Shown one piece after another: positions 5,792 through 54,616 of a DNA stretch of 64,000 nt; position 1 is the stretch's first letter; each line of letters begins with the position of its first letter. This stretch comes from Armatimonadota bacterium (lineage in GTDB: Bacteria > Armatimonadota > UBA5829), in NCBI GenBank assembly GCA_026392045.1, contig JAPLCU010000041.1, forward strand, positions 84-64,083, in the 5' to 3' direction. A model generated the notes under the pieces. It did no database searches. It saw nothing but the letters and a program-made list of their open reading frames with translations, and was not told the DNA's origin. Made by a program: the position numbers and the translations under genes.

Positions 5792-5908
5792 GTGAGTGGA
5801 TTAGATGATCTGACAAGAGAAGAACTGATAGAGCTGGTTTTGAAGCTACACGAGATACTGCAGGCTCAGCAGCGAGAGATTGCTGAGTTTAGGTCTTTTG
5901 GGATTTGA
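5792..5908 (+). pseudogene. IS66-family transposase (TnpC-like) N-terminal fragment of ~38 codons, truncated where a family-5 hairpin element begins
   Basis: Translation VSGLDDLTREELIELVLKLHEILQAQQREIAEFRSFGI* resembles the leucine-zipper N-terminus of IS66 transposases (L-x-EELIALVL...LFGxKSEK). The stop is created inside the repeat. Confidence 0.4.
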
Positions 5909-5976
5909 GTGGAGCGTCAGCGGAACGGAAATCCCAAAACAAACTGCGGCACAACCAAGAGGAAATCGCGGCAAAC
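5895..5976. repeat. family-5 hairpin element copy 1 (stem TTTTGGGATTT / AAATCCCAAAA plus a conserved 3' tail ...CAACCAAGAGGAAATCGCGGCAAAC)
   Basis: Same element at 46921-47000 and 47298-47373, with compensatory stem changes (TTTCGGG/CCCGAAA). Confidence 0.55.
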
Positions 5977-11478: not shown

Positions 11479-12363
11479 ATGTATGAACAAATCTCGGGTA
11501 ATATCTGGCGTTCGCGTTTGCTGTTGGTGATGTTTCTGGCGATTTTGATCGGGATAGGTTACGTGTTTTCGCGAGCGTATAATGACCCGTTTATTATGCC
11601 GCTTGCTATTGTGATTGCGGTTGCAACCACCGTCGGCAGCTTCTATTACAGCGATAAGATCGTGATTGCCACTACCGGCGCCCGTGCGGTGGACAAGGAC
11701 GAGTTTCCGCATTATGTAAACTCGGTGGAAGGCATCGCCATCGCTGCAGGGCTGCCGTGCCCGCGGATTTTTGTTATAAATGACCTCGCGCCGAATGCAT
11801 TCGCAACCGGACGAGACCCTGAGCATGCCCTGATATGCGTGACTACGGGCTTGCTGGGCATGATGGACCGCACCGAGCTTGAAGGCGTGATCGGGCATGA
11901 GATGTCGCATATCGAGAATTACGATATTCGATTTATGATGCTGGTGGCGGTATTGGCGGGCTCGATTGCGCTTATGTCGGATTTCTTCTGGCGTATGAGA
12001 TGGTTCAGAAGCAGCAGCCGCGACAGCAACGGAGGCGGGCAGGCGCAGGCGATATTTATGATTATTGGGCTGGTTCTGGCAATACTCGCGCCGCTTTCGG
12101 CTGCATTGGTGCAAGCGTGGATATCTCGGCAGCGAGAATACTTAGCCGATGCCAACGGCGCTCTGTTGACGCGCTTCCCGGAAGGCCTCGCGAACGCTCT
12201 CGAACAGATCGCCGAAGATCCCAACAAGCTTCAATCCGCAAACAAAGCAACTGCGCATCTGTTCATCGCAAACCCTTTGAAAGACCACGGCGGCGCTATG
12301 AACAGCCTCTTCGACACTCACCCGCCAATTGTTGAGAGGGTAAGAAGATTGCGGGAGATGTGA
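11479..12363 (+). CDS. htpX: zinc metalloprotease HtpX (M48 family)
   Basis: HEMSH zinc motif (GHEMSHIENYD). TM segments. C-terminal FDTHPPIVERVRRLREM. Confidence 0.85.
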   Translation: MYEQISGNIWRSRLLLVMFLAILIGIGYVFSRAYNDPFIMPLAIVIAVATTVGSFYYSDKIVIATTGARAVDKDEFPHYVNSVEGIAIAAGLPCPRIFVINDLAPNAFATGRDPEHALICVTTGLLGMMDRTELEGVIGHEMSHIENYDIRFMMLVAVLAGSIALMSDFFWRMRWFRSSSRDSNGGGQAQAIFMIIGLVLAILAPLSAALVQAWISRQREYLADANGALLTRFPEGLANALEQIAEDPNKLQSANKATAHLFIANPLKDHGGAMNSLFDTHPPIVERVRRLREM

Positions 12364-12448
12364 TATAGCAAAAATTATATGTGGGAACGACTGCGACCAC
12401 TGCGCTTCCAGTTCTACGCATTCAAGATTTCTCGCAGCATCAAGAATC

Positions 12449-12961
12449 CTACTTCGCCGTGTCGTTGGCGACAGTATCCTCAAGTTCAATATAGACCTTG
12501 GACACTTCCGGGCAGACTTCTTCGGCTTTGTCAAAAAATCTGACTTCGATTTTGGGCTTACCTGAATCTTTAACGATCTTCGCGATCCAGTTCTTACCTG
12601 TCACGAGCGATAGCAGGTTCATTGCTTTACGCACAGATACTTCATCCGTAGGAACATCCAGTTTGCCGTAACGCAATATAACGTTACCTGTAAAATGACA
12701 CCCGCTGGCTTGCACCACTATGGGTAAGTCAGGCATTTGTTTCTTGACTCGATCAAAACCTACTATTTGACTAATTGCATCATCCGGTGATGAAGCAGAA
12801 ACACTTAGTCCTGTTAAGTCAGTCGTAAATGGATAAGGGAAAGATGGCTTGTTAGGTACGTAGCGAAGGAACTTGCCATTCTTATCCCGCAATTCGCTTG
12901 CTCCAGGTGTCTGGTACAGTCTTGGCACATAATTAAAGTACCCGGTCGATGCTCTCGTCAT
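12449..12961 (-). CDS. hypothetical protein (170 aa) inside the inserted segment; possibly a continuation of 12933..13241 via a frameshift
   Basis: ORF only. Overlaps the upstream ORF by 29 nt. Confidence 0.35.
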   Translation of the reverse strand: MTRASTGYFNYVPRLYQTPGASELRDKNGKFLRYVPNKPSFPYPFTTDLTGLSVSASSPDDAISQIVGFDRVKKQMPDLPIVVQASGCHFTGNVILRYGKLDVPTDEVSVRKAMNLLSLVTGKNWIAKIVKDSGKPKIEVRFFDKAEEVCPEVSKVYIELEDTVANDTAK

Positions 12962-13241
12962 AAGAGTGTATCGTTATCTTTGTTTCAGCTGTGCCAGCCG
13001 TTAATTCCACACCTACCGGCATACCGATTTTTTCTGCGACGGCCAGAAAAACCGCACTTGCTGGCACGTTTACAGCATAAATACTTTTAATACGTACCTT
13101 CCAGCAAGCAAATATCTTATGGCTATTTTTCTGCCCCAATTCCCCCAAACAAACCGTAGGATTGGACGACGAAAGAGACGGCGCCGCAAGTAACATTGAG
13201 CCTGCCACCATCAGCGCTAAACTCTGCAATTTATGTTTCAT
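12933..13241 (-). CDS. small secreted protein (102 aa) with a signal peptide; the ORF-track N-terminal extension to 13646 is a translation of REP repeats
   Basis: ATG at 13241 is preceded by GGGAGGAAGAAT. MKHKLQSLALMVAGSMLLAA signal peptide. Confidence 0.45.
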   Translation of the reverse strand: MKHKLQSLALMVAGSMLLAAPSLSSSNPTVCLGELGQKNSHKIFACWKVRIKSIYAVNVPASAVFLAVAEKIGMPVGVELTAGTAETKITIHSYDESIDRVL

Positions 13242-13272
13242 ATTCTTCCTCCCACAAAAAAGGTTATAGTTT

Positions 13273-13573
13273 GTATGCTGCGGGCACGGCTGCCTGCACT
13301 TTGTTGGCAGATTTGCGCGTTCAAGAGTTCCCGCAGCTATTACACAATCAGCCGGTGATAGCTGCGGGAATTGACGTTTGATGAATCTTGCTGCGTTGTC
13401 GCTCATCGCCATTCCCGCAGCATCAAAATCGGCAAACGCCGGAATTGACGAATCCTGAGCGCTTACAGTAAAGTTAGACGTGCCCGCCGTCGTTGGTGTT
13501 CCCGATATTGTATGCTGCGGGCACGGCTGCCTGCACTTTGTTGGCAGATTTGCGCGTTCAAGAGTTCCCGCAG
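13273..13573. repeat. REP-like array, family 1: two identical 64-bp units (13273-13336 and 13510-13573) plus chained GCTGCGGGAA/TTCCCGCAGC hairpins between them
   Basis: Exact 64-bp direct repeat. Inverted-arm pairs at 13329-13376 and 13367-13420. A degenerate arm is also at 12418-12449. Confidence 0.7.
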
Positions 13574-13686
13574 CATCAATTGTTGAGAGGGTAAGAAGAC
13601 TGCGGGAGATGTAGCCGATTTTGTGCTGGTATTGGATTTCCACCACAGCTGCGCCCTGGAACGGATTTCCAGGACGATCTTACATT

Positions 13687-14565
13687 CTAATACCCGTAAG
13701 CATTTGGCAGGTTCTTACCCCATGAGATGATCTCGCTGCTGCGCTCGAGGCCTTGCTTCACGTGCTCAATTATGTAGCTCATGCTGCCGGGGCTGATTTC
13801 TACCACCTTGGCGATATCGCGCAGGCTGATGTTTGCTGTGAGGTCCGGAATGCATGGCGCTGATATGCGTTTGGCGAGCATATCGGCAGCGAATACAGTC
13901 CGTGCGAGGTCTGAGTATTGCGTCGCGCATTCCGGTGTGTGATGGCAGGCGATTGCCTGGACCAGCTTTTCGGGGAAGCCCCATTGCTCCGTTACATATT
14001 GGCCAACTTCAGCGTGGTTCGAGGATAGGAAGTTGTTTTCCACTGTGATCATGTCTTCTTTGCATTTACGGCAACCCTCCACAACCGCCATGAATCTCAG
14101 CGGCAGCATGCAGGCTATCACAAGCTTGCCGATGTCGTGCAAAAGCCCGGCTATGAATACGGTCTCGTCTTTCCTGCGGTCAAAGCCGGACATATAGGAG
14201 TAAATCTCCTCTGAAGCAATAGCGCAGGTGACCGAATGCAGCCACATTGCCTGCCAATCGAAGCCGGGGAATACTCGGCGCGGAAACATTGCCTCCAATA
14301 CCGACGCCGAAGCGGCGAGATTGCGGACGTATCCGAAACCAAGAACCAAGATGGCGCTTGAGATCGTATCCACTTCCTGCATTCTATGGAAATAGGCGGA
14401 GTTTGCCAGCCGTAGCAGCCTGGATGTCAATGACTGGTCAATCATCACGGCGTTGGCCAGGTCCTGCGCGCTCGTGTCGGGATTGCGAGTGATCTGGATG
14501 ATTCGAGACAATATAAACGGCATGCTGGGCAGCTCGATGTTGACTGACGACGGACTTAACATCAT
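13687..14565 (-). CDS. HDOD-domain signalling protein
   Basis: LTSRLLRLANSAYF ... GLLHDIGKLV motifs characteristic of HDOD. Start set at MMLSPSS. Confidence 0.7.
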   Translation of the reverse strand: MMLSPSSVNIELPSMPFILSRIIQITRNPDTSAQDLANAVMIDQSLTSRLLRLANSAYFHRMQEVDTISSAILVLGFGYVRNLAASASVLEAMFPRRVFPGFDWQAMWLHSVTCAIASEEIYSYMSGFDRRKDETVFIAGLLHDIGKLVIACMLPLRFMAVVEGCRKCKEDMITVENNFLSSNHAEVGQYVTEQWGFPEKLVQAIACHHTPECATQYSDLARTVFAADMLAKRISAPCIPDLTANISLRDIAKVVEISPGSMSYIIEHVKQGLERSSEIISWGKNLPNAYGY

Positions 14566-14728: not shown

Positions 14729-16432
14729 ATGTTTGGGCAATATTGCCTGCATAACTATCGCGCACTTGCGAATGCAGGCAGATTGGCTTACCATGTGGGT
14801 ATGGCAGTTGATTTATATGAGAAAGCAAAAGCCAGGCTTGCAAAAGAATCCGGCAGATTGAGCATCAATGGGGCGGCTGCGGTGCGCTTCGCGTTGGCAT
14901 TTCCCAACGTATACAGCGTGGGGATGGCATCGCTCGGTTACCAGCTTGTGTATCAGATGTTGAATTCATTGCCCAACGCTTCCTGCGAACGGGTGTTTTT
15001 GCCGGATGATGGCGACCTCGAAGAGCACGAGCGCACGCAAACGGAAGTATTCACTCTGGAAAGCCTCAGACCGCTTTCTGAGTTTCATGTGCTGGGCTTT
15101 TCGATATCGTTTGAGCTTGATTATATTAACGTCCTCAAAATAATCAAGCTTGGCAACTTGCCGGTTTTGAGCTCCGAGCGAGGCGATTACGACCCGATTG
15201 TGATTGCAGGGGGGCCATGCGCTTCGTTTAACCCCGAGCCTCTTAGCGATTTCATAGATGTGTTTGTAATCGGCGACGCTGAAGAGGCGCTGCCTGAGAT
15301 GGTGAATGCCATCGAGCGCACACTCGGTAAACCACGCCTGCAAAGGCTTGAGGCGCTGGCGGGAGTGGCGGGGGTATATATTCCCATATTAAACAATAAA
15401 GCAAGCCGCGCAATCGCACGCGATCTAGACATTTACCCCGCAGCATCTCTAATTCACGCTGACGACGCTCAGTTTGGCGACATTAGTCTGGTTGAAATCT
15501 CTCGTGGGTGCGGCAGAAAGTGTCGGTTTTGTTTGGCCGGGCACATCACACGTCCGCCAAGACCTCGATTGCTATCTGAAGCGCAAATTAGAGGAAAATC
15601 GCGGATGGGTCTTGTAGGCGCTGCTGTTTTCGATCACCCAGACTCCATAAATATATGCCGTTCGATAGTGAATTCTGGCGGGGAGTTTACTGTGTCATCA
15701 TTACGGCTGGAAACAGTCACTCCCGAACTTGCGGGTCTGATGGCGTCTGGAGGGCAGAGAACTCTTACTATTGCGCCTGAGGCTGCCACGGATCGCCTGC
15801 GCAAGGCGATAAACAAGTATTCGACTGATGAGCAGATATTTACAGCTATATCCATCGCGTATGAGTCAGGGTTCAGGCGGGTAAAGTTATACTTTATGAT
15901 TGGTTTGCCGACTGAGACCAACGACGACATCGCAGCGATTATCGATCTTACGAAGCGGGTGTCGCGTGAGTATCCATCCATGCAGTTTCAAGTTTCCGCC
16001 AGCAGTTTCGTGCCGAAACCGTGGACGCCTTTCCAGTGGCATGTGATGGAACGTGAAAACGTGCTTAAAAAGCGTTATGCGATGCTTCGCTCGGGGATAT
16101 CCTCCATCAAGAACGCTCAATTTGGAGGAGAAAGCCCGAGGCTTGCGTCGGTTCAGGGTTACCTTGCGAGGGGCGACCGCAGCTTGGGACGAGTTCTATT
16201 GACGGCATTGGAGAACGGTGGAGATTACGGCGCCGCGCTTCGCGAGACCGGTGTTGACGCCTCGCAATATCTATATCGCGAGCGATCAGTCGAGGAGATT
16301 TTGCCCTGGGACCACCTTGATATGGCTGTGGATAAGAATTACCTCTGGCGCGAGTATGAAAAATCATTGGAAGGAAAGTTATCTGAGCCTTGTAATGTCG
16401 GCGGGTGTCAGGCGTGCGGAGCGTGTAAATAA
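14729..16432 (+). CDS. B12-binding-domain radical SAM protein
   Basis: CxxxCxxC (GCGRKCRFC) radical SAM motif after an N-terminal B12-binding-like region. C-terminal Cys cluster CNVGGCQACGAC. Confidence 0.75.
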   Translation: MFGQYCLHNYRALANAGRLAYHVGMAVDLYEKAKARLAKESGRLSINGAAAVRFALAFPNVYSVGMASLGYQLVYQMLNSLPNASCERVFLPDDGDLEEHERTQTEVFTLESLRPLSEFHVLGFSISFELDYINVLKIIKLGNLPVLSSERGDYDPIVIAGGPCASFNPEPLSDFIDVFVIGDAEEALPEMVNAIERTLGKPRLQRLEALAGVAGVYIPILNNKASRAIARDLDIYPAASLIHADDAQFGDISLVEISRGCGRKCRFCLAGHITRPPRPRLLSEAQIRGKSRMGLVGAAVFDHPDSINICRSIVNSGGEFTVSSLRLETVTPELAGLMASGGQRTLTIAPEAATDRLRKAINKYSTDEQIFTAISIAYESGFRRVKLYFMIGLPTETNDDIAAIIDLTKRVSREYPSMQFQVSASSFVPKPWTPFQWHVMERENVLKKRYAMLRSGISSIKNAQFGGESPRLASVQGYLARGDRSLGRVLLTALENGGDYGAALRETGVDASQYLYRERSVEEILPWDHLDMAVDKNYLWREYEKSLEGKLSEPCNVGGCQACGACK

Positions 16433-19391: not shown

Positions 19392-20822
19392 TTGGAGATA
19401 GAAACTCCTCATTCGCCGAACCAGAACAAGTCTTGGCTTATCTATATGCTGGTGATCGGGCTTTTGGTCGTCGGCATTGTTACGCTGAACATAACCGGTC
19501 TCCGGATGCGCCCAGCTAATTCTCAAGCTGGGGTTGGTTCTGAGAATGATTATATCGTTGGCGATACTTATGTCAGGCAAGCCATATCGGCAATTCCTGT
19601 CTTTGAGGCCGCAGACAGCGCTCAGAAGGCCATCGAGGCTTATGAGCAAATTGGCTCGGAGCCAGCAGCCATTCGGCGGATTGGGGTTGTAAAACAGCTT
19701 TTGCTGCATAAATCGGGCAAGCATGAGTTTGAATTGCTCGGTGAACCTAAGCAGTTTCGAGATGTTACCAAAGCCGAATCAGCTAAACTTGCCTCAGAAT
19801 CGCAGATGTGGATAAGCATATTTGAAGCAAAGAGCTTGGACCCTGATCGAGCTCAAAAATATGCCAAACAAATCAAAGCCCTCGACCTTGGCCCTATCAA
19901 AGACAGGGCAATCGCTGAGGTTTACGATAGGGCAGGCGAGAAGTTGAAGGCATTGGCTCTGAGAAATGCTGCCAGCGAGAACGCCGCTGTCTGGATAGTG
20001 ACGCTCTGCATTGTATTTATGTTTGCCAGCGCCGCTGGACTCGCGGGGATTGTCTTTTGCATTATCTTTCTTGTTAGATTCTCGGACGATCTTAAGCATG
20101 CTGCTGCTCCAAAAATCCAGCCGGAAATCCTTCTTATCAGCTTTCTCTTGTATTTTGTGGGTTTTTCTTTCATTGAGCTTTTGAGTGGTGTATTTGCAGA
20201 TACCGCGGGAATTGGCGAAAACGATTCTGTGGGGATCGCAATCCGACTTTGTCTCCAGCTCTTGTCTATGATACTGGCATTTTCATTGGGCGTGGCTGCG
20301 TTCAAGAATATGACTACGCTCTCGGGCGAAGATGCTGGAGAAATCGGCCTAAAGTTCAAGCCTATATTTGGCAAAATATTATGGGGAGTGGCTGCGTATT
20401 TTGCCGCCCTGCCTTTGTTGGGCGTTGCCGCTGTGATATCAAGTGAGCTTTCGAAGACTGTTTTCAAGGATGTGCAAACGCCGGAGCATCCGATAGTCGA
20501 GATGGTCATAAAGGGTGGGGCGCCGATTCTGATTGTGTTTGTGCTTGCTGTTATCGCAGCGCCAATTGTTGAGGAGGTGTTCTTCAGAGGAATGCTGTAC
20601 ACGGCGCTGCGCACAAAAATGGGAGTTTGGGCCGCAGTTTTGCTCTCTGGGACGATATTTGCCGCTCTTCACCCGACATTTCCCGGGCAGTTTCTTCCGC
20701 TTTTGGCGTTGGCGATGGTGTTGGCGTTGGTGCGCGAAAAGACAGGTTCGCTGCTGCCTGGCATTGTTTGTCATGCGATAAATAACACTATCGCATTGAT
20801 GCTGGTATTTTTGGCTTTTTAG
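19392..20822 (+). CDS. CPBP-family intramembrane metalloprotease (CAAX protease-like) with a long N-terminal extension
   Basis: EEVFFRG, FAALH and HAINN motifs in the C-terminal TM region. Confidence 0.7.
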   Translation: MEIETPHSPNQNKSWLIYMLVIGLLVVGIVTLNITGLRMRPANSQAGVGSENDYIVGDTYVRQAISAIPVFEAADSAQKAIEAYEQIGSEPAAIRRIGVVKQLLLHKSGKHEFELLGEPKQFRDVTKAESAKLASESQMWISIFEAKSLDPDRAQKYAKQIKALDLGPIKDRAIAEVYDRAGEKLKALALRNAASENAAVWIVTLCIVFMFASAAGLAGIVFCIIFLVRFSDDLKHAAAPKIQPEILLISFLLYFVGFSFIELLSGVFADTAGIGENDSVGIAIRLCLQLLSMILAFSLGVAAFKNMTTLSGEDAGEIGLKFKPIFGKILWGVAAYFAALPLLGVAAVISSELSKTVFKDVQTPEHPIVEMVIKGGAPILIVFVLAVIAAPIVEEVFFRGMLYTALRTKMGVWAAVLLSGTIFAALHPTFPGQFLPLLALAMVLALVREKTGSLLPGIVCHAINNTIALMLVFLAF

Positions 20823-46867: not shown

Positions 46868-47000
46868 CGGGCTGGATTGCAAATCCGCCCGAACTTAGTT
46901 ATTTCGGGAAACCCTCGGTGTTTCGGGATTTGAGTGGAGCGTTAGCGGAACGGAAATCCCGAAATAAACCACGTAACAATCAAGAGGAAATCGCAGCAAA
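46868..47000. repeat. composite repeat: family-4 motif (46868-46899) followed by family-5 hairpin copy 2 (46921-47000)
   Basis: Sequence identity to the copies at 2329/45772 and at 5895/47298. Confidence 0.6.
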
Positions 47001-47297: not shown

Positions 47298-47373
47298 GTT
47301 TCGGGATTTCCATTCCGCCTGCGGCTCCATTCAAATCCCGAAACACCGAACAGCGTAACAACCAACAGGACAC
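47298..47373. repeat. family-5 hairpin element copy 3 (stem GTTTCGGGATTT / AAATCCCGAAAC with a different loop)
   Basis: Same stem and 3' tail (..GTAACAACCAACAGGACACCG) as copies 1 and 2. Confidence 0.55.
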
Positions 47374-54440: not shown

Positions 54441-54600
54441 GCTCACTCTTTGTGAGAATACACGTACAAACTAGCATCCTGAGCTCCGTCGAAGGGTGCG
54501 GATAAGTCTAATCAAATGTAATTTCCCTGCCGCGTGCTTCGTCCTTCGACGCTGCTCAGGATTGCTCAGCATGCTCACATTGTACTCATCAAGAGTGAGC
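54441..54600. repeat. 160-bp imperfect inverted repeat (MITE-like or structured RNA): ~56-bp arms around a 47-nt loop, followed by a T-run
   Basis: Left arm gctcactctt..catcctgagc..cgtcgaagg. The reverse complement of the right arm is gctcactctt..aatcctgagc..cgtcgaagg. Confidence 0.5.
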
Positions 54601-54616
54601 TTTTACGACGCTTTTG

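Follow-up and report, generated by a model that had tools for sequence, protein, structure and literature searches.

A displaced end of htpX marks an insertion of REP-rich DNA in an Armatimonadota bacterium

The gene htpX lies in a 64,000-nucleotide stretch of DNA from an Armatimonadota bacterium (assembly GCA_026392045.1, contig JAPLCU010000041.1), and this whole stretch is called the window below. Downstream of the intact gene we found a second copy of its last 38 nucleotides, an orphan tail that stands next to the convergent HDOD gene and is separated from the functional end of htpX by repetitive extragenic palindromic (REP) units and a broken gene for a secreted protein. Our analysis indicated that the insertion is real and well delimited and that the gene tail has been displaced, for which empty sites in relatives give support. 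Most likely the locus carries the scar of a single recombination in DNA rich in REP units and does not represent a new mobile system.

The final 38 nucleotides of htpX (12326-12363) are seen again at 13577-13614, where 35 of the 38 positions are identical; over the 36-nt core (12326-12361 versus 13577-13612) the identity is 97%. When the final 60 nt of the gene were compared with the window by BLAST, the second copy was returned with E = 1.8e-13, and the runner-up was only a 14-mer. The proximal end of the gene reads ...CACCCGC followed by CAATTGTTGAGAGGGTAAGAAGATTGCGGGAGATGTGA, and the orphan copy reads CAATTGTTGAGAGGGTAAGAAGACTGCGGGAGATGTAG. The two differ at three nucleotides, namely T12349 against C (TTG and CTG, both leucine) and the stop codon (TGA against TAG), so that all three differences are neutral for coding and both peptide and stop are preserved. 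In simulations, random triple substitutions in this stretch were all neutral in 1.1% of the cases, or in 3.5% when only transitions were permitted. MAFFT offered another reading of the stop difference, in which the proximal copy carries an indel of 5 nt (ATG[TGATA]TAGC versus ATGTAGC). The repeat and the neutrality of its differences had been recognised in an earlier note on this DNA, and both observations hold; that note placed the proximal copy correctly and the distal one, at 13576-13613, one nucleotide too low. The first 23 nt are identical in the two copies, and the similarity is bounded by a REP junction at its start and by the stop codon at its end. The flanks beyond the stop codons were found to be unrelated (p = 0.8; p = 0.08 for the first 45 nt), as one would expect of two genuine gene ends that lie in different contexts. 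The orphan had also been described as out of frame with every upstream open reading frame (ORF); in fact it is in frame with a 44-codon ORF starting with GTG (13480..13614), which has no entry in the protein collection and is probably meaningless.

To reveal the state of the locus in relatives, the comparison with related genomes that the earlier note proposed was carried out. HtpX scans of genomes and metagenomes returned relatives with at most 74% identity whose downstream genes were not conserved, and these were of no use for recognising an empty site; empty sites were found through protein-level matches to HtpX and HDOD followed by inspection of the contigs. First, loci L029 and L030, which belong to the same genus and share the radical-SAM and HDOD synteny of the window, encode an HDOD protein with 86% amino acid and about 87% nucleotide identity. 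In these loci, 5 nt past the HDOD stop, we observed the reverse complement of ...CTTCGACACTCACCCGCCAATTACTGAAAGGGTGAGAAGATTGCGGGAGATGTGA, which is a normal htpX tail, leaving 5 nt between the two stops. The tail of L029 runs on into htpX upstream of the 38-nt point, and its alignment with the window is collinear over HDOD and the tail and splits precisely at the 38-nt boundary, where the window has REP unit 3 and L029 has htpX. Second, in loci L027 and L028 (HtpX 77% identical) htpX is followed by a convergent HDOD gene with 9 nt between the stops, and their gene order, MFS-HI0933-...-LemA-x-HtpX, agrees with the window upstream of the gene. The ancestral state was thus htpX converging directly on HDOD. 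About 1,251 bp were inserted 38 nt before the htpX stop, inside the tail, and the orphan occupies the original position of the tail.

The inserted DNA is rich in units of one REP family. This family is real, since the window has 5 matches to the pattern CTGCGGG-N45-CCCGCAG where 0.01 would be expected, with a constant core-to-core length of 59 nt, and the same pattern is present in relatives L021 and L025. The copies are intergenic and fold as hairpins closed by the unit ends (DNA folds, z = -2.0 to -4.1); in addition, the arms of neighbouring units pair in tight arm-loop-arm hairpins, as do 13328-13343 and 13355-13370. The layout of the array is like that of a bacterial interspersed mosaic element (BIME). 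The units resemble the REP sequences, BIMEs and hairpin-forming REP doublets (REPINs) associated with the REP-associated tyrosine transposase RAYT (PMC3116915, PMC3337134) in being short, palindromic at their ends, intergenic, clustered, alternating in orientation, hairpin-forming and conserved within a lineage. In contrast to those systems, the units in the window are from Armatimonadota and have arms of only about 10-12 nt and the constant core-to-core length; moreover, a target duplication of 38 nt is not known to accompany the movement of REPINs. Two details of the earlier description were revised: the exact direct repeat within the array, given as 64 bp, is 67 nt long (13271-13337 = 13508-13574), and what was called a degenerate REP arm after htpX is a whole degenerate unit. 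The latter (about 12380-12438) begins ~16 nt past the htpX stop and aligns without gaps to the 67-nt unit, and none of 2000 shuffles aligned as well.

The orphan tail directly abuts the right arm of REP unit 3, ...GTTCCCGCAGCAT, with the junction GCAGCAT/CAATTG, which bears out the claim that the distal copy is joined to a REP arm. A 3-nt microhomology had been proposed at this joint. Since CAA also trails two other arms of the family (12429-12443 and 13412-13426), a CAA overlap with htpX (...CGC/CAATTG) is plausible, as judged from these other arms and not from the donor. Of the REP-mediated recombination suggested before, what is borne out is the location of one junction on a REP arm; a role of REP units as the agent of the event would be hypothetical.

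REP-rich DNA was also found behind htpX in other members of the lineage. The closest htpX relative, L020 (GCA_009885305.1; HtpX 96% identical at the amino acid and 89.5% at the nucleotide level), ends its gene with CTG and TAG as the orphan does, and has a degenerate REP arm ~62 nt past the htpX stop; the right-arm region matches the window at 26 of 31 positions, and 0 of 2000 shuffles were as good. Past this unit L020 continues with unrelated low-complexity sequence and no homologue of the cargo gene of the window. At 1290-1428 of L020 there are tandem-like repeats rich in GGAGAGC/GGAAGG, which terminate the contig. On the HDOD side, L025 from the same assembly shows HDOD, 38 nt and then a REP unit 81% identical to unit 2 of the window, without an orphan, so that L020 and L025, read as separate loci of one assembly, represent a filled allele that lacks the orphan. 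In L021 (HtpX 81%), htpX is followed by 1.1 kb of REP-rich non-coding DNA. No second copy of the respective htpX tail was present in L002, L009, L020-L023 or L027/L028, several of these contigs being short and L029/L030 being left out. REP-rich DNA downstream of htpX is thus common in the lineage, and the duplicated tail is unique to the window. Both tail variants serve as working ends of htpX in the genus, since L029 ends its gene with TTG/TGA and L020 with CTG/TAG, and TGA and TAG alternate as htpX stops across the relatives.

The scenario that we prefer, with about an equal chance of being right or wrong, is a single recombination between a REP-filled and a compact allele that produced one homologous and one illegitimate junction, either by homology-facilitated illegitimate recombination (HFIR) or by a Campbell-type crossover. 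The duplication, the empty site, the position of the orphan, the REP junction and the lack of a recombinase nearby are observations, and we infer that two alleles took part, in which direction the DNA was transferred and by what enzymology. The compact allele would have had htpX and HDOD converging with few bases between the stops, and the filled allele would have carried htpX, the degenerate REP unit, the secreted-protein gene and the REP array. One crossover would have been homologous, within or upstream of htpX. The other would have been illegitimate, joining the end of a REP arm (...CCCGCAGCAT-CAA) to the resident htpX (...CGC-CAATTG) 38 nt before its stop through the 3-nt CAA overlap. This may have happened by HFIR of a linear fragment or, equally possibly, the fragment may have been circularised and have recombined through the tail in a single crossover. 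Because the incoming DNA would have brought a complete htpX 3' end, the gene would have been kept intact, and the last 38 nt of the resident gene would have been displaced 1,251 bp downstream, where they would survive beside HDOD as a non-functional orphan. The extent of the homology from the REP joint to the stop codon, the occurrence of both tail variants as functional ends in the genus and the neutrality of all differences favour the joining of two genuine gene ends over a copy that drifted later. The scenario is also favoured by the empty sites, by a filled allele that lacks the orphan, by the lower G+C content of the insert, and by the lack of mobile-element genes among the neighbouring ORFs and of a second tail in the relatives examined.

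HFIR has been described in Acinetobacter baylyi, Streptococcus pneumoniae, Pseudomonas stutzeri and E. coli conjugation (PMC3240628 and references therein), with micro-homologies of 3-10 bp and insertions of about 1 kb, and the plausible 3-nt overlap and the 1.25-kb insert of the window are consistent with these ranges. The same paper shows that the homologous segment becomes duplicated when a circle undergoes a single crossover (PMC3240628). The window shares with HFIR an insert of ~1 kb and the lack of a dedicated mobile-element enzyme, and in the preferred scenario it would also share the combination of a homologous and an illegitimate junction. Unlike those cases, the event is read from a natural genome, the donor would be an allele of the same locus and not unrelated DNA, and it is a REP arm that carries the proposed illegitimate joint.

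Several observations weigh against this scenario of recombination between two alleles. First, GTT and GTA codons are common to both tail copies of the window, whereas L029, L020 and the outgroups lack them; the parents would therefore have to be very closely related, unless the first 23 nt were homogenised later. Second, the filled L020 bears the variant of the orphan and the empty L029 that of the proximal copy, which is the reverse of the simple expectation and requires further recombination or parallel transitions; the latter are possible because the stops flip between TGA and TAG across relatives. Third, no breakpoint was detected in htpX when it was compared with one close relative, L020, the 118 differences being spread evenly over 60-nt bins. 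Fourth, the orphan lies 72 nt from HDOD, compared with 5 and 9 nt in the relatives, a distance for which the scenario does not account. In addition, the distal junction is known from the contig of a single metagenome-assembled genome (MAG), and the CAA overlap is read from other REP arms.

The identity of the first 23 nt, with window-specific states unseen in L029 or L020, would be readily understood if the tail had been duplicated in situ without foreign DNA. Here, illegitimate or REP-associated recombination between sister chromosomes (at CAA) would have duplicated the DNA from 12326, followed by deletion of most of the second copy and by substitutions, or patch repair of a break would have copied first unit 1 and next the end of htpX. 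REP unit 3 equals unit 1 over 67 nt (100%), which suggests recent local copying. REP sequences are said to have been found at the join points of tandem duplications in Salmonella, by Shyamala and colleagues in 1990. However, this explanation requires two steps or more, and the deletion among them must happen to start at the stop codon, and if the copies were identical at the start, the three changes must all have been neutral or have all fallen in the constrained copy (p about 0.01-0.035). It also leaves unaccounted for that the orphan lies exactly at the tail position of the empty sites. We regard a duplication in situ as unlikely.

Elements that regenerate the 3' end of a target gene include tRNA-gene islands and, in Streptococcus thermophilus, the integrative and conjugative elements (ICEs) ICESt1 and ICESt3 and the cis-mobilizable elements (CIMEs) at the 3' end of fda. 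By analogy, the insert could be a decayed or non-autonomous, CIME-like element whose site-specific recombinase is encoded elsewhere and whose circle carried an attP with the last 38 nt of htpX, the two tails being attL and attR. As in such elements, direct repeats containing the last bases of the gene flank the insert, htpX is regenerated and intact, and relatives have an empty site; the block of homology stops at the gene end, as is the case for elements that insert into tRNA genes or into the 3' ends of genes; and the insert has a lower G+C content (44-46% versus 52-57% for the flanking genes). Unlike in them, no recombinase was found in or near the insert, the site is not used recurrently in the relatives and one border is a REP arm. 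When 30 larger window ORFs, among them all of at least 150 aa within about 10 kb, were scanned against Pfam, only housekeeping families (for example YggS-like, SepF, ProC, an Rrf2 regulator and prismane) and no recombinase, transposase or RAYT were revealed; in particular, the ORFs within about 10 kb gave no match to an integrase, transposase or excisionase domain. The contents of the insert amount to a frameshifted secreted-protein gene and REP units, and a BLAST search of the whole feature against phage and plasmid collections gave no match. In addition, L020 and L021 are REP-rich past htpX and yet have no second tail, so that no recurrent, att-like use is apparent. An integrative element thus seems improbable to us. 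The idea of a gene-end insertion that regenerates htpX, as put forward in the earlier note, is borne out by the empty sites, and its extension to a dedicated integrative or cassette system finds no recombinase and no recurrent use to support it.

Other known types of elements were considered and rejected. A transposon with a target site duplication of 2-15 bp does not agree with a duplication of 38 nt, a left end of the insert without a repeat arm and the lack of a detected transposase. For an integron attC site (RYYYAAC...GTTRRRY), the unit ends CGGGAAC...GTTCCCG misfit the consensus and no integrase was found nearby, and Xer/dif-type sites were rejected on sequence grounds. Rfam gave no match in the region or in the whole 64-kb window and no tRNAs were found, which ruled out an attachment site of the tRNA/tmRNA type or a known RNA. 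A scan for promoters and terminators revealed nothing beyond shuffle expectation.

The tail of htpX itself bears a look-alike of the REP core, CTGCGGGAG compared with CTGCGGGAA in the REP units, and together with the adjacent REP arm it makes an 8-bp inverted repeat (TCCCGCAG/CTGCGGGA); an 8-mer match of this kind is not improbable by chance. A RAYT-like REP-processing enzyme might conceivably have used this pseudo-arm to join a REP-bounded cassette without a recombinase of its own, regenerating the tail, which we rate as a long shot. If it were true, REP arrays could bring cargo into gene ends.

An artefact of assembly was also weighed, in which the MAG contig would be a chimera of strain haplotypes and the joint of REP unit and tail would exist in no single cell. 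Logan contigs of SRR20698647 are 100% identical to the window up to their ends, and these ends lie at 12931, adjoining the frameshift of the cargo gene, and exactly at the HDOD stop (13687), which leaves 12932-13686 without an independent assembly and suggests co-existing haplotypes or low coverage over this part. The 102-aa product of 12933..13241 and the start variants tried are on record in no other assembly, and exact look-ups of the cargo ORFs matched this MAG only. Against this, a de Bruijn chimera needs a shared k-1-mer, whereas the joint shares 3 nt and identity between the tails extends over no more than 23 nt; the cargo up to 12931, and with it the proximal junction, was confirmed at 100% identity; and the structure is internally coherent and agrees with the synteny of the relatives. 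Such an artefact is very unlikely in our judgement.

The cargo had been described as two small secreted-protein ORFs. A full HMMER search detected nine homologues at E ≤ 1e-10, of which the seven full-length ones retrieved have 269-292 aa; a word-indexed search with the 170-aa ORF had found no homologues. When the homologues (P0242-P0249) were searched with TBLASTN, their residues ~49-112 matched the 102-aa ORF in frame -1 and residues ~122-283 the 170-aa ORF in frame -2. The two ORFs are thus fragments of one gene, matched by the homologues in adjacent parts, and the cargo is a single secreted-protein gene. A frameshift located between about 12936 and 12973 disrupts it and arose either since the insertion or already before it. 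No Pfam family was found in the cargo ORFs. NCBI annotates a 237-aa hypothetical protein (MCX6344528.1, NT018_05565) at 12933..13646 on the minus strand, which runs antisense across the whole REP array and the orphan tail, and this call is probably an over-extension of the 102-aa N-terminal fragment. For annotation, two "hypothetical proteins" are here the halves of one frameshifted gene.

The features of the locus are listed in the table. The HtpX protein of the window is identical to the NCBI MAG protein P0001 (Armatimonadetes bacterium), and the HDOD protein is 100% identical to P0122.

Table. Features of the htpX-HDOD locus in window coordinates
Feature	Position	Strand	Remarks
htpX, M48 metalloprotease, 294 aa, intact	11479..12363	+	Pfam Peptidase_M48, E = 1e-30
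Proximal, functional htpX tail copy	12326..12363	+	(P)IVERVRRLREM and stop; TTG and TGA
Degenerate complete REP unit 3' of the htpX stop	about 12380..12440	+	Orthologous to the unit after L020 htpX
C-terminal fragment of the frameshifted secreted-protein gene, frame -2, 170 aa	12449..12961	-	
N-terminal fragment of the frameshifted secreted-protein gene, frame -1, 102 aa	12933..13241	-	Signal peptide; GGAGG ribosome-binding site
REP unit 1, subfamily 1	13271..13339	+	13271-13337 identical to unit 3
REP unit 2, subfamily 2	13356..13424	+	81% identical to the unit following HDOD in L025
Degenerate REP-like unit, arms GCCGGAATTGACG / GTGCCCGC	about 13436..13490	+	Weak assignment
REP unit 3	13508..13576	+	Right arm ...GTTCCCGCAGCAT fused to the orphan tail
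Orphan 38-nt htpX tail copy, CTG and TAG	13577..13614	+	At the htpX-tail position of the empty-site relatives
Unique 72-nt spacer, orphan stop to HDOD stop	13615..13686		7-bp hairpin at 13655-13673
HDOD/HD-domain gene, convergent with htpX	13687..14562	-	Ancestral right-hand neighbour; Pfam HDOD, E = 2.5e-56

Beyond the orphan, about 67 nt of the spacer (13615-13686) would have been gained separately, given the 5 or 9 nt in the relatives. Upstream of HDOD and in the same orientation, L025 (206-826) and L026 (241-882) carry an Rce1-like (CPBP) gene; the window (14729-16432) and L029 have a divergent radical-SAM gene in its place, and the right side of HDOD has therefore also been rearranged within the group. 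An Rce1-like domain protein is encoded further along the window (19392-20822).

Two further repeat families were observed. The second family has units of about 140 nt that fold into a long hairpin (-52 kcal/mol as RNA, z = -3.1) and lies at 54462-54606 of the window, with further copies at 944-1059 and 1742-1867 of L021, where it stands twice downstream of htpX, at 1002-1117 of L022 and at 4360-4501 of L027; it is 70-76% conserved across genera and has no Rfam match. A third repeat of about 50 nt with a perfect 12-bp stem (GTTTCGGGATTT ... AAATCCCGAAAC) occurs in the window at 5891-5940, 46917-46964 and 47298-47347 (minus strand) and is 88-94% identical to 9402-9450 of L027, compared with only about 74-78% for coding genes between these genomes.

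Displaced gene ends are also known from the C-terminal displacement at rhs, cdiA and type VI secretion system effector loci, which leaves orphan 3' fragments and has been proposed to arise by HFIR (Kirchberger et al. 2017, PMC5361080; Jackson et al. 2009 on C-terminal displacement, as cited there). At these loci, as in the window, a new 3' end is supplied and the old one is moved downstream as an orphan. The likeness ends with function: there, the new toxin domain and the orphan with its immunity gene provide a function under selection, whereas the two tails of the window encode the same 12 residues, with no sign of diversification.

The locus reveals no new mechanism or function and is most likely an ordinary, one-off recombination footprint. 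Its interest is that of a natural example, from the poorly sampled Armatimonadota, of how a compact convergent gene pair gains accessory DNA with both genes retained: the incoming DNA would have brought its own gene end, and the old end would have been left behind as a dated scar, with filled and empty alleles within one genus. The locus shows REP-rich intergenic DNA to be a site of structural change in this lineage, and it may be used for asking whether REP arms favour illegitimate joins.

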